A program made the position numbers and the translations under genes. Below are positions 33,962 to 42,769 of a DNA stretch of 64,000 nt, one piece after another. Source of the stretch: an uncultured bacterium (GTDB lineage Bacteria; Krumholzibacteriota; Krumholzibacteriia; LZORAL124-64-63); NCBI GenBank assembly GCA_963732385.1, contig CAVSZB010000007.1, positions 864,001 through 928,000 on the forward strand, in the 5' to 3' direction. Within the stretch, counting starts at the first letter, position 1; every line of letters begins with the position of its first letter. The notes under the pieces are model-generated. The model saw only the letters and a list, made by a program, of their open reading frames with translations, did not search any database and was not told where the DNA came from.

Positions 33962-34582
33962 TCAGGCCAGGGGGATGAAGCGCCCCGTCGCGGCGTCATA
34001 GCCCAGCAGACGACCGCGCTCGAGATCGAAGTACCAGCCGTGCAGGGCGAGCGTGCCCGCCTCGACCCGCTCGGCCACCCACGGGAAGGTGAGCAGGTTC
34101 CGCAGGGAAAGCAGCAGCGAGGCCTGCTCGCAGGCGCGCGCCTGCAGTTCCAGCGGCTTGCCGGGCAGGCGGGCGAGCACTTCATCGCGCGCCTCCCGGG
34201 CGATCGCCACCCAGCGCGGCAGGAATTCGCCCTGCGCCCCCTCGATCAGCGCACGCACGCCGCCACACTGCCCGTGCCCGAGCACGCAGATGTGCGCCAC
34301 GCCGAGCGAGCAGACGGCGAATTCGAGGGCCGCGCTCACACCGTGCGTGGCGCCGTCGGATTCGTACGGCGGCACAAGGTTCGCGACGTTCCGCACCACA
34401 AACAGGTCGCCGGGACGCGCGTCGAGCAGGTGGGCGGGATCCACACGCGAATCGCAGCACGCGATCACGAGCGCATGAGGCCGCTGTCCGTGCCGCAATT
34501 CTGCATAGAGTTCGCGATCGCCGCCGAAGAACCGCACCTGGAAGCGCCGAAACCCGGCCAGGAAATCCTCGACGTCGCGCAC
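33962..34582 (-). CDS. can: Beta-class carbonic anhydrase
   Basis: GQRP, CCDSRV, RNVANLVPP, HGQCGG and LHGWYFD motifs. Confidence 0.93.
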   Translation of the reverse strand: MRDVEDFLAGFRRFQVRFFGGDRELYAELRHGQRPHALVIACCDSRVDPAHLLDARPGDLFVVRNVANLVPPYESDGATHGVSAALEFAVCSLGVAHICVLGHGQCGGVRALIEGAQGEFLPRWVAIAREARDEVLARLPGKPLELQARACEQASLLLSLRNLLTFPWVAERVEAGTLALHGWYFDLERGRLLGYDAATGRFIPLA

Positions 34583-34601
34583 GCGAACCCCCGGGTATGG
34601 A

Positions 34602-34627
34602 AAGGCCAACCGACCGCGGTTGGCCTT
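34602..34627 (-). terminator. Hairpin just downstream of the tmRNA 3' end
   Basis: AAGGCCAACCG-N4-CGGTTGGCCTT with only a short U tract. Confidence 0.5.
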
Positions 34628-34631
34628 GATC

Positions 34632-34986
34632 TGGTGGAGGCGGCGGGAATCGAACCCGCGTCCACAATCGGTTCTCTGCCAGCTTCTACATGCTTAGCCG
34701 CGCGTTCATTCTCGCCGGTCGGCAGGCTACGCGGCCCGCCTACCTTCCGGCCAGTTCCCTAATTTTCTCGCCCGTCGCCAAGGAACACGACTCGGGGCCA
34801 GGCACCGGAAAATTTCGCTCCGTGGACAGGGCCGCTGCCCCCCCCATCCGGGAACGCGCCGCCTAATTAGGCAGCGAGGGCAAACTGATTGTTGTCAGTT
34901 ATCTTTTTTCCACCGTTTTACGAGAGAGATGGGATCTCGGCATGCCGCCAACAGTCCCCCGACCGCGTCGAAGCCATGTCGCCCCC
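34632..34986 (-). ncRNA. ssrA: tmRNA, tag (A)DNNQFALAA
   Basis: 5' GGGGGCGACATGGCTTCGAC; 3' GACGCGGGTTCGATTCCCGCCGCCTCCACCA; tag frame GAC AAC AAT CAG TTT GCC CTC GCT GCC TAA at 34896-34867 after ATAACT. Confidence 0.96.
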
Positions 34987-35024: not shown

Positions 35025-35054
35025 ACAATATCGCACATTGGGGGGCGGCGTCAA
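35025..35054 (-). promoter_or_regulatory. Putative ssrA promoter
   Basis: TTGACG-N18-TATTGT. Confidence 0.55.
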
Positions 35055-35164
35055 TGCCCGGGGGGGCGTGGCGTCGATGCGGGCGCGGCCGCTCAGAGCC
35101 AGCGACCTGCGGTCGCAGTCTCTGCGCGGATTGCGCCCGCATCGACGCCACGCCCCCCCGGGCA
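35055..35164. repeat. Long palindromic element, copy A
   Basis: Perfect 32-bp inverted repeat (35055-35086 / 35133-35164) around a 39-nt core at 35089-35127. Confidence 0.9.
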
Positions 35165-35455
35165 AAGGCGACTCCGGCCCAACGAGTGATATTGAGAGGC
35201 GCGCGGCAAGGTTACTGCTCCGACGATGCGATTCGCGATCGGCGACCTGCGGCGAGCAAAGCGACACCCCCCGCCTGTTCGATCGTTGGCGGGAACCGGC
35301 GGGGCGGAGTTGCCGCGCCCCCGCCCCCGAGACCGGGCCGCCAGGAGAGGCCTGGACGGGGACCCATGCGACTCATGCGGTTGGCTGGACGCACGCACCG
35401 CCGGAGCGTAGACTCATGTTGCCCGGATCAGGAACGCACCCGAGGGAGGTCGACC

Positions 35456-37960
35456 ATGAGGGTGACAGGCGGGCGTTTCTTTCCGCATGCATCGATTTTG
35501 CTCGCCGCGTTGCTGCTGGCGGGACCGGCAGTCGCAATCCCCGATTGCCTTCCGTATGAGACGTTCTTTCACTGGATCGTCCGGGTTCCCAACAGCGCTG
35601 GCGCCTTGGATGTCGCCGTTCAGGGAGAGTACGCCTATGTAACGGGATACTGGACGGCGGTGATGGTATTCAACATCTCCGACCCGTACCATCCAGGCAG
35701 AATTCAAGATATCGACATCTCTGAGTACGCAGGAAAAATCCTCTGCAAGCCGCCCTACCTATTCGTGTCCGGCCTTTCTCGGGATGAGACGACCTCGCAC
35801 CTCCACGTCATCGATGTCTCTGATCCCCTCTCTCCCCTCGTCTTGGGACAAGCGACGCTGCCAGCCGAGCCCAGTGCCCTGGCCTATGATCCCCCGTATC
35901 TTTACGTCTGCGCTGGCAGCCTGTGCGTGATCGATGTCCGGGACCCGGCGCGACCGACTGTGGTGGCGAATCTCGCGCTGGCCTCTCCACCCATGGCCGT
36001 GGCGGTGTCGAAGGGACGCGCCTATCTGGCAATGTGGGATCGCGGGCTGAACATTGTCGATGTCTCGGACCCGCTTCACCCGACGTTCCAGCAGGAAATC
36101 GACTTGCCCCACCGCGAGAGAGCCATAACGGTCGCAGGGGACTACGCCTTCTTGGGCAGCTTCAGGACTCTCCTGGTTCTCGACATTTCCGGTCCGACTC
36201 CTGTGCGCGTGGGAGAAGTGACCGTGGGCAATCCGGAGGACGATTTCATTGGTGATATCGTCGTCCGGGATCACTTTCTTTTCCTTTCTTCCAACTACGG
36301 TGGCGTGAAGGCGGTGGATGTATCCGATCCCACCGCCCCGTTCGTGGTAGGGGAGATCGGAACGGGTGATCGCAGCCTGGGTATTGCCGATGCGGGGAAC
36401 TGTGTCCTGGTCGCAGACTGTCTGGCCGGCTTGCAGGTGATGGCCGCGATGAATCCGCAGACCGCCGGAGCCAGTCCCGCAGGGGGAATCACCGAGGCAA
36501 TCCATGACATCGCCGTGGCCGGCAACATCCTCTTTGCGGCGAACTCCGATTCCGGACTGGTCGTTGCGGATATTTCCCTACCGGAAAATCCGGCTCCGCT
36601 CGCCCTGGTCGCTACACCTGGCTCGGTGAGAAGCATGCGTCTGGACAGCGATCGGCTGTACCTGGCGTGTCAACGAACCTACGGCGCCACTCCCACCGGG
36701 AGATTGCAGATCGTCGACATTGCGAACCCTGAGAATGCTGCACCGCTCGGAGATGTCCCGTTGCCCGGCTGGATGCTGGCAGTCGAAGTCGCAGGACAGT
36801 ATGCGTATGTGGCCGCAGGCGATCGAGGACTCCAAGTCGTCGACGTTTCGGATCCACGCGCGCCGGTTCTCGTGACGAGCCTCGCCACGCCGCGATATGC
36901 GATGGATGTCGCTGTCAAAGAAAACAGGGCCTACATCGCGGGCTTCGATGGTGGCTTCCAGGTGGTCGACATCACCGATCCGCGCGTGCCGGCGTACCTG
37001 GGTTCGTCCCCGACATTTGGCAACGCGTTTGCGATTGAGTTGGTGGGTGACCGGGCCTATGTGGGCGGCGGCAGCGGGGGAATGCGCATTTTCGATATTG
37101 CGGGCGCCGGTATTCCTGAGGCTCTGGCGGATGTGACCCTTCCAGGCCCGCTCATGGGAGAGTTCGCCGGGCACCCAAGGGATCTGGTTGCCAACGGGAA
37201 CTACGTCTATGTGGCGTGTGAAGCGGCCGGCATCCAGGTGGTGGACATCACCAGCCCGACATCGCCTTTGATCGCGGGCTTGATCACTGTTCCCTCGTAC
37301 GCAGTGGCCATCGCCGTGACCAACGATGGCATCTGGATCGCAGGTGCGTCGTCGGGGCTCCTGCTGGCGCCCCGACAATGCGGCGATGCCCTCGCCGTGA
37401 GCATCCGCGACTTCGGCGCCGGCTGGTCGGATGGCCTGGCCGTCGTGCATTGGCTGGTCGAGGAAGGCCCAGGCATCGCCAGCCTTGCGTTGTATCGCGA
37501 AGGGCCGTCGGGCCATCGAATGCTGGTCCGAGAGGTTCCACTGACCGGGCAGGAGCTCTACCAGATTATCGACACTGCGGCGAATTCAACCGGGCACGAG
37601 AGGTACTGGTTGCGGGAGAGCGGAGCCCAGGGTTCGGACATCTGGCATGGTCCCGTGGAGCTGACGCCGCAGGAGGCGCCGAGCATCCTGACCCTCGGGC
37701 CGGCCTGTCCCAACCCCTTCAATCCAAGCACGTCCATCCGCCTGACTCTGCCCCGGGCGGGAAGGATCGCGGTTTCAATTTACGATCAGCGCGGTCGACT
37801 GGTGAAGAGGTTGACGCAGGGCGAAATGCCCGCTGGCGTGCACCCGCTGGCGTGGGACGGTGAAGATTCGCGCGGGGCACCCGCGGCCTCCGGGACTTAT
37901 GTGGCACGGCTGGTGACGCGACAGGGCGTGTGCTCGGCCAAGCTGATGCTGACGCGGTAG
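35456..37960 (+). CDS. Secreted LVIVD-repeat (beta-propeller) protein with C-terminal FlgD-Ig domain
   Basis: GGGAGG RBS and signal peptide; many 'YAYVA...GLQVVDVSDP' repeats; PNPFNPST...WDGEDSRG...SGTYVARL. Confidence 0.88.
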   Translation: MRVTGGRFFPHASILLAALLLAGPAVAIPDCLPYETFFHWIVRVPNSAGALDVAVQGEYAYVTGYWTAVMVFNISDPYHPGRIQDIDISEYAGKILCKPPYLFVSGLSRDETTSHLHVIDVSDPLSPLVLGQATLPAEPSALAYDPPYLYVCAGSLCVIDVRDPARPTVVANLALASPPMAVAVSKGRAYLAMWDRGLNIVDVSDPLHPTFQQEIDLPHRERAITVAGDYAFLGSFRTLLVLDISGPTPVRVGEVTVGNPEDDFIGDIVVRDHFLFLSSNYGGVKAVDVSDPTAPFVVGEIGTGDRSLGIADAGNCVLVADCLAGLQVMAAMNPQTAGASPAGGITEAIHDIAVAGNILFAANSDSGLVVADISLPENPAPLALVATPGSVRSMRLDSDRLYLACQRTYGATPTGRLQIVDIANPENAAPLGDVPLPGWMLAVEVAGQYAYVAAGDRGLQVVDVSDPRAPVLVTSLATPRYAMDVAVKENRAYIAGFDGGFQVVDITDPRVPAYLGSSPTFGNAFAIELVGDRAYVGGGSGGMRIFDIAGAGIPEALADVTLPGPLMGEFAGHPRDLVANGNYVYVACEAAGIQVVDITSPTSPLIAGLITVPSYAVAIAVTNDGIWIAGASSGLLLAPRQCGDALAVSIRDFGAGWSDGLAVVHWLVEEGPGIASLALYREGPSGHRMLVREVPLTGQELYQIIDTAANSTGHERYWLRESGAQGSDIWHGPVELTPQEAPSILTLGPACPNPFNPSTSIRLTLPRAGRIAVSIYDQRGRLVKRLTQGEMPAGVHPLAWDGEDSRGAPAASGTYVARLVTRQGVCSAKLMLTR

Positions 37961-38065
37961 GAACGGAGATCCCCTGCCCCGCGACAATGGCCGAACCCCT
38001 GCATGCCATCGGGGGCGGCGCCCTGCGGCGTGCCAAGCGACGCCGCCCCCCCTGCCCGTCGGTGA

Positions 38066-38167
38066 GGGGTGGTCCGGCGCGGGTGCGCGGGCGCGTCTGC
38101 GCAGAGACTGCGACCGCAGGTCGCTGGCTCTGAGCGGTGCACCCGCACACCCGCGCCGGACCACCCC
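38066..38167. repeat. Long palindromic element, copy B (inverted relative to copy A)
   Basis: 20-bp perfect outer stem (38066-38085 / 38148-38167) plus an imperfect inner stem around the exact reverse complement of the 39-nt core (38099-38137). Confidence 0.9.
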
Positions 38168-38232
38168 CCGCAATGCGAAGGCGGGGCAGAGTCGCCTCCG
38201 CCCCGCCTCAGACCCGACCCGCCAGCAGAATC

Positions 38233-42769
<4,537 letters not shown>

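Follow-up and report, generated by a model that had tools for sequence, protein, structure and literature searches.

The subject of this study is a pair of facing hairpins, elements A and B, which enclose a gene for a secreted LVIVD-repeat protein in a 64,000-nt stretch of DNA (the window; contig CAVSZB010000007.1, positions 864,001 to 928,000) from an uncultured Krumholzibacteriota genome of 3.82 Mb, here called G000. We propose, with a probability of about 60%, that A and B are two resident members of a small family of palindromic insertions that is restricted to the genus and has stems mirroring the adjoining host DNA. Fold-back template switching during replication likely formed these stems and keeps their arms matched, and the gene is likely a later arrival, brought in by one crossover within a duplication rather than as a cassette. 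The two hairpins belong to a family held at fixed sites throughout the genus, persist at an empty site, have an internal direct duplication, change on both arms in a coupled way, and mirror promoter, terminator and coding DNA.

The two elements are located as follows:
35055..35164 (+): hairpin element A, a 32-bp perfect stem around its core (core 35089-35127)
38066..38167 (-): hairpin element B, facing A (core 38099-38137)

As reported in the first-pass annotation, and exact by sequence match, a 39-nt core at 35089-35127 on the plus strand recurs as its exact reverse complement at 38099-38137; no third match with up to 8 mismatches exists in the whole 3.82-Mb genome. The arms of stem A (35055-35086 and 35133-35164) form 32 bp without a mismatch, and the 29-nt arms of stem B (38066-38094 and 38139-38167) are 93% paired, their outer 20 bp perfectly. 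Folding z-scores of the hairpins range from -9.9 to -14.7, with 0 of 200 shuffles equally good. The outer stems had been described as unrelated; they do differ, but not wholly, as A and B have approximately 63 nt in common around the core in G002, which, like G001, is a genome of the same genus. Stem A directly touches the TTGACG -35 box upstream of the transfer-messenger RNA (tmRNA) gene ssrA, as had been noticed. Two other identities were rejected: the only matches to known Rfam RNAs over A and B were sub-threshold and of the microRNA-type hairpin kind, and two exact cores and eight family copies do not make an ordinary high-copy repetitive extragenic palindrome (REP).

The hairpins remain where the gene between them is missing. 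Among the 61 genomes searched, the core was found besides G000 only in G002, where it occurs twice, inverted and about 230 nt apart, in the order ssrA, A, about 130 nt, B, terminator and the glutamate dehydrogenase gene gdhA, with no LVIVD gene. The empty ssrA-gdhA site that the first-pass annotation had suggested looking for in relatives therefore exists, and it is supported by two public sequencing runs, contigs of two of the four runs having been aligned to the site: a contig from run X2 joins position 35263 directly to 38062, and contigs from runs X2 and X5 cross both the empty junction and B. Since G002 keeps both hairpins and the X2 and X5 contigs span the junction and B, the earlier idea of a moving cassette with the hairpins as its ends is contradicted; the DNA gained ends inside them, and a hairpin pair as such is not a cassette. 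Both A and B are missing from G001, where ssrA and gdhA stand next to other genes.

The extra DNA in G000 amounts to 2776 nt (2.78 kb) and ends inside the hairpins within an old direct duplication of approximately 75% identity (35226-35358 versus 38003-38239), which had previously gone unnoticed:
35226..35358 (+): left copy of the direct duplication, comprising the D2 block, a gdhA-terminator-like hairpin and a remnant of the gdhA stop, without hairpin B
38003..38064 (+): right D2 block, in which the gdhA terminator arm recurs in inverted, decayed form; likely site of the crossover

Alignment of 35226-35288 with 38003-38064 gives 49 identities in 64 positions, and that of 35298-35358 with 38180-38239 gives 46 in 61, neither being equalled in 2000 shuffles; the second score was reached by 1 of 5000 random genome windows, which is probably the site itself. 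The left copy thus reproduces the D2 block and the terminator and stop of gdhA from the right flank but not B, and one crossover within D2 interconverts the filled and empty alleles. D2 was also considered as a dispersed repeat or an att core and rejected, as only its two copies score genome-wide and D2 is itself B's mirror of the gdhA terminator. Because D2 mirrors that terminator through B, B probably predates the duplication. With three empty lineages and one filled, gain of the gene from a diverged donor seems likelier than its loss. No inversion joint was present among the contigs listed (the best 15 of 20 in one case; contigs only), a result that carries no weight.

Family members were sought with relaxed patterns, a hairpin scan and two covariance models. 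As the first-pass annotation had supposed, structure is retained across the family, of which G000 contains eight copies: A and B themselves, single copies following the stop codon of an M64 peptidase gene and the groEL terminator, a pair at sdhB and the gene facing it, and a pair at sucB. Seven of the eight stood among the 12 hairpins listed by the scan, the first sucB copy coming from a separate search. G001 adds a pair at wzx and asnB, divided between two contigs. The pattern search matched 7 of 208 genomes of the class, namely three genus members with three matches each and four genomes outside the genus with single candidate hits; both models match 3 of the 91 genomes at family rank, all within the genus (42-44 candidates scored per genome). 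A genome scan returned 30 matches and a metagenome scan 28. Full new hairpins occur at 6 of the 28 metagenome loci, all holding the M64 or asnB copy, and the element-like genome loci are sites already counted. Viral contigs were rejected as carriers, none of their 21 pattern matches scoring with model R1. Four further loci (L053, L054, L062 and L074) contain another multi-copy repeat of one genome that fits the core pattern and has a different fold.

All copies have a basal internal loop in common, and their core-stem mismatches are nearly invariant; the tip types are locus-specific, with pair partners being of the same type. The elements have a guanine-plus-cytosine (GC) content of 77-78% and end in a G-run. 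Most copies, namely those at gdhA, M64, asnB, wzx, groEL, sdhB and the partner gene of sdhB, lie on the sense strand with a stop codon or terminator directly before them. The copies occupy the same orthologous sites across the genus, except that in G001 A and B are absent at ssrA and gdhA and the groEL copy is likewise absent. At two loci (L079:1-79 and L089:5091-5206), the orientation of the core with respect to the adjoining gene is the reverse of that in other strains, by either a real flip or an assembly artefact; these may be assembly flips, as X5 unitigs break at the arms.

Arm changes in these hairpins are coupled. Between G000 and G002, eight orthologous hairpins comprise 372 Watson-Crick pairs, of which 14 changed on both arms (13 remaining Watson-Crick) and 22 on one arm, totals that are summed over two comparisons and contain a 9-nt indel in the sucB1 row; under independence, 1.7 double changes were expected. 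The hairpins changed at 6.7% per base, compared with 7.5% (30 of 400) at gdhA third positions, and change at such a near-synonymous rate is easier to reconcile with mutational coupling than with slow compensatory selection. Coupled, near-neutral change is what arm-to-arm template switching predicts, and switching between the arms of inverted repeats is an established process (PMC5941160).

Coupling could also arise if the hairpins were functional RNA structures, such as terminators, stabilisers or RNase III sites, kept by selection for pairing, with the pairs representing nothing but facing gene ends. This explanation, which we regard as unlikely, draws on the sense-strand position of most copies after a stop codon or terminator, their retention at orthologous sites, and the covariation of 20 of the 38 consensus pairs. 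However, A follows no gene on its own strand, the two sucB copies are in frame on opposite strands, the core is reversed at L079 and L089 (possibly assembly flips), and the G-U bias that would indicate strand-specific folding is inconsistent over 13 copies. Moreover, the double changes accrue at about the synonymous rate, and 27 M64 loci from other genera have no hairpin.

Outside the near-perfect stem, the 3' flank repeats the 5' flank in inverted and decayed form. This mirror was scored on 55-nt flanks at nine loci; wzx was assessed only by eye, with none visible. The scores were 27 and 36 for B, 35, 28, 31 and 27 for M64, 34, 12 and 14 for the sdhB side, and 32, 42 and 12 for its partner; they were 21 and 44 for sucB1, 44, 44 and 44 for sucB2, 24 and 24 for A, 17 and 16 for asnB, and 18 and 20 for groEL. 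Since shuffles ignore codon structure, a real-sequence null was added, in which a score of at least 27 occurs in less than 1% of controls, 34 in at most 0.05%, and 24 in 2.3-2.7%. On this scale, six of nine loci reach at least 27 in at least one genome, A is borderline, and asnB and groEL are negative. The low sdhB scores coincide with a flank taken by a toxin-antitoxin module or the end of an insertion sequence (IS), and the hairpin-free sucB of another genome, G008, scores 16 and 18. The match extends up to about 130 nt from the shared core and includes promoters and coding DNA. Around A and B, the parts concerned are:
35025..35054 (-): ssrA promoter-like site with -35 TTGACG and -10 TATTGT, host DNA mirrored by hairpin A; the same boxes occur in G001, without A
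35170..35203 (+): ssrA promoter region in inverted, decayed form, with a -10 box in mirror image (borderline significance)
38180..38207 (-): terminator-like hairpin of gdhA, rich in GC and part of the host DNA; also found in G001, which is without B

The mirror at 35170-35203 scores 24, a value reached by 1 of 2000 shuffles and about 2.3% of real-sequence controls. This segment retains most of the -10 box, not the -35 box, and points to the LVIVD gene; a promoter scan makes no call there. The mirrored DNA is host DNA, because the ssrA -10 region and the gdhA terminator occur in G001 without the elements. The M64 end is likewise host sequence: similar C-termini, none with a hairpin, occur at the 27 other-genus loci listed (30 loci fetched among 61 genomes matched). 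At sucB, conserved domains are still encoded on either mirrored side, and the mirror there must therefore have built up piecemeal.

That last observation bears on a further possibility, that a now-extinct element resembling a transposon copied 70-90 nt of its target in inverted form in the act of insertion, its hairpin end priming fold-back synthesis, and that only decay has followed. The arrangement of host DNA 5' of the core and mirror 3' of it at ssrA, gdhA, M64 and sdhB would suit such an event, as would copies that begin directly at stop codons. The piecemeal growth at sucB and the coupled changes that orthologous stems still undergo after speciation argue against it, and we consider it the least credible of the alternatives discussed here.

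Six of the eight copies (four of six without the seed pair) lie in face-to-face pairs within 3.1 kb. The sdhB pair (G000 C1:126316-127333, L221; also G002 C27 and G001 C20) encloses a MazE-like/Doc toxin-antitoxin module of 56.5% GC in G000 and G002 and is empty in G001. The sucB pair (G000 C8:317393-317800, L105) lies in frame in both linkers, on opposite strands, and flanks a native binding domain that G008 has without hairpins; the linker region measures 152 aa in G000 versus 91 aa in G008. Gene turnover is therefore seen at two of the three pairs of G000. In the G001 wzx/asnB pair (L114:3-680, C195) lies a small secreted gene, the signal-peptide start of which was seemingly lost at the hairpin. 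Its G000 homologue (L107:4398-5153, C6) is intact, has no hairpins, and adjoins an open reading frame (ORF) resembling, on by-eye reading, an IS110 transposase.

Such turnover raises the prospect that the pairs are resident capture platforms, at which a recombinase cuts and joins folded single strands and loads accessory genes between fixed ends. Filled and empty alleles exist for both intergenic pairs of G000 (the LVIVD gene; MazE-like/Doc), the G001 pair brackets a secreted gene with its start apparently cut at the hairpin, and the near-invariant core-stem mismatches resemble those of protein-read hairpins. We nevertheless hold this to be improbable. The cargo junctions have no common motif or position (a direct duplication in one case, a replaced mirror in the other), the sucB pair surrounds a native domain, and neither R boxes nor a Y1 transposase, RAYT or TnpA was found. 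Furthermore, no match to the family models lies beside any of four tyrosine-recombinase loci or the integron integrase.

Enzyme searches covered genomes of the genus that are 62-96% complete. The Y1 transposase family PF01797 was not found in G000, the one genome searched for it, and neither RAYT (NF047646) nor the IS200/IS605 transposase TnpA (NF033573) was found in any of three genus genomes. G000 encodes three tyrosine recombinases, one being an integron integrase (TIGR02249, 469 bits against a cut-off of 265; C3:7223-8209) on a different contig from A and B. The integron itself (C3:1-8209, L155) has low-GC ORFs beside the integrase and a classical attC site at C3:3237. No GTTRRRY motif of attC R boxes lies near A or B, and a genome-wide scan finds a single attC-like site, on C3.

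A second dispersed repeat of approximately 40 nt (CAGAGACTGCTAC ... GCAAAAAGTGCGC), commonly arranged as inverted doublets or in tandem, gave 46 profile hits in G000 on C1, C3, C5, C6, C7 and C8, none of them in the window. Its exact-type pattern occurs 23 times in G000, 29 times in G002 and not at all in the other 206 class genomes. The repeat carries GTAG, forms REPIN-like doublets, and has a 3' arm motif, GCAGTCTCTG-N3-GGA, in common with the hairpin core, which may be a collapsed doublet of this GTAG-repeat kind. Mirrored flanks were not found at 12 of 13 of its doublet pairs, the 13th being a neighbouring copy, and no transposase family was found near the repeats among the 42 of 74 ORFs scanned. 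GTAG-type REP doublets also occur at G000 C2:19996-20081 and C2:131397-131467, in a genome where RAYT was not found.

Based on these observations, a sequence of steps may be envisaged. A core of 55-65 nt with a fixed basal internal loop would have been seeded beside gene ends, probably by a REP/RAYT-type enzyme, given that the 46-hit repeat has the same GCAGTCTCTG-N3-GGA arm. The face-to-face partner would then be made by local copying, since partners share pair-specific cores. During synthesis, the nascent strand would fold at the core and copy its own flank, leaving a stem that is perfect near the core and decays outward. Palindromes of this kind would be fragile, which may explain why the interval between partners gains and loses genes. 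A transposase-free version, in which a selfish core of approximately 60 nt copies itself nearby on the opposite strand by template switching and grows its stem from adjoining host DNA, even where this is promoter or coding sequence, the interval becoming a slot for gene gain and loss, is also rather unlikely in our estimation, if somewhat less so than functional RNA.

Several observations weigh against the proposed origin of the family by template switching and of the filled allele by crossover. The mirror is absent at asnB (0/2) and groEL (0/2), borderline at A, and present in only one of three sdhB-side copies, two of three partner-side copies and one of two sucB1 copies. In runs X2 and X5, most of the changes listed in B disrupt pairing, which is retained in 0 of 7 and 2 of 9 of them (the register being uncertain). 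The G-run stem base is common to the A, wzx and asnB copies, and some of the stem must therefore move along with the element. No enzyme was found, so core seeding and partner copying are hypothetical steps; the LVIVD gene may have been gained or lost, and the turnover counts are for hairpin pairs alone.

Among known systems, attC sites carry complementary R boxes (RYYYAAC and GTTRRRY) at the hairpin base and stand in direct orientation, one site leaving with the gene, and the hairpin ends of IS200/IS605 elements depart together with their cargo. The present hairpins resemble attC in being imperfect, with fixed unpaired bases, in a genome that encodes an integron integrase. Unlike attC sites, A and B have no R boxes, are inverted rather than direct, and are both kept when the gene is missing; the integron's own attC at C3:3237 looks unlike them. 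They also differ from IS200/IS605 ends in staying when the cargo is missing (G002, X2, X5), and TnpA was not found. By these comparisons and that with REP-RAYT below, the family behaves as a palindromic insertion of the RPE/YPAL type and belongs to none of the three systems (attC, REP-RAYT, IS200/IS605) that the first-pass annotation took as analogues.

Rickettsia palindromic elements (RPE), YPAL of Yersinia, and ERIC are bacterial palindromes resembling miniature inverted-repeat transposable elements (MITEs), as outlined by Delihas 2008 (PMC2229807). Like them, the present elements are non-coding, 100-200 nt long, formed of a single long stem-loop without an enzyme of their own, situated between genes or in frame within them, and missing from empty sites in relatives. 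In the same account, most of those elements are A+T-rich with TA ends, whereas this family is GC-rich, has no TA ends, numbers eight copies, and combines a conserved tip with a stem that mirrors each host site and a mostly face-to-face arrangement. A direct target duplication is not clearly visible here, the empty sites being too diverged for base-by-base alignment.

REP and REPIN sequences are palindromes of 20-40 nt with a terminal GTAG or CGTC tag, and RAYT genes are flanked by such repeats (PMC3733652, PMC3116915). The family resembles them as extragenic palindromes by gene 3' ends and inverted doublets, and REP/REPIN palindromes sometimes supply a stop codon or lie within ORFs, as family copies do. 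Unlike REP, A and B are 100-110 nt long, three times longer, and untagged, GTAG occurring inside only one G001 copy; REPINs keep their ends and vary the spacer, and this family does the reverse. RAYT, the partner of REP/REPIN, was found in 0 of 3 genomes here. Quasi-palindrome correction, by which imperfect inverted repeats are fixed from arm to arm during replication, concerns arms of less than 20 bp as described in PMC5941160, whereas here the match reaches about 130 nt and includes promoters and coding DNA. In literature searches at the level of listings and the openings of abstracts, subscription papers and supplements apart, neither this family nor stems that mirror host DNA were found described.

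The genes at the locus are:
34632..34986 (-): tmRNA gene (ssrA), left neighbour (ARAGORN; Rfam RF00023)
35456..37960 (+): gene for a secreted LVIVD-repeat/FlgD-Ig protein, accessory and missing from the empty allele (domain match)
38233..39657 (-): gdhA, encoding glutamate dehydrogenase, right neighbour with a provisional start codon

The LVIVD/FlgD_ig gene has, as first remarked, a visibly lower GC content: 62.6%, the 5th percentile of 1667 crude gene calls longer than 300 aa. It was rightly regarded as accessory: none of the 207 class genomes searched has a match at E<=1e-60 among the 6 candidates scored in each. A preference of the hairpins for surface-protein genes, also suggested at first, is not borne out: only one of the 64 FlgD-tail genes in G000, the LVIVD gene itself, is bracketed by hairpins, and the other pairs of G000 hold Doc/MazE or a native domain. 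One 151-nt piece from run X3 is identical to the LVIVD gene and too small to use. A carbonic anhydrase gene behind the tmRNA 3' end (33962-34609) is present in G000 and G001 and missing at this site in G002.

These results remove a candidate new cassette system and replace it with a natural case of host-derived stems with both arms rewritten together, even within sucB. Relative to the known palindromes compared here, the family is set apart by its conserved tip, its host-mirroring stem and its local face-to-face pairs. Coupled arm change resembles covariation, and such elements are at risk of being mistaken for selected RNA or recombinase sites. If the core does spread without an enzyme of its own, or if the pairs raise gene turnover, the family would represent a route of genome change.

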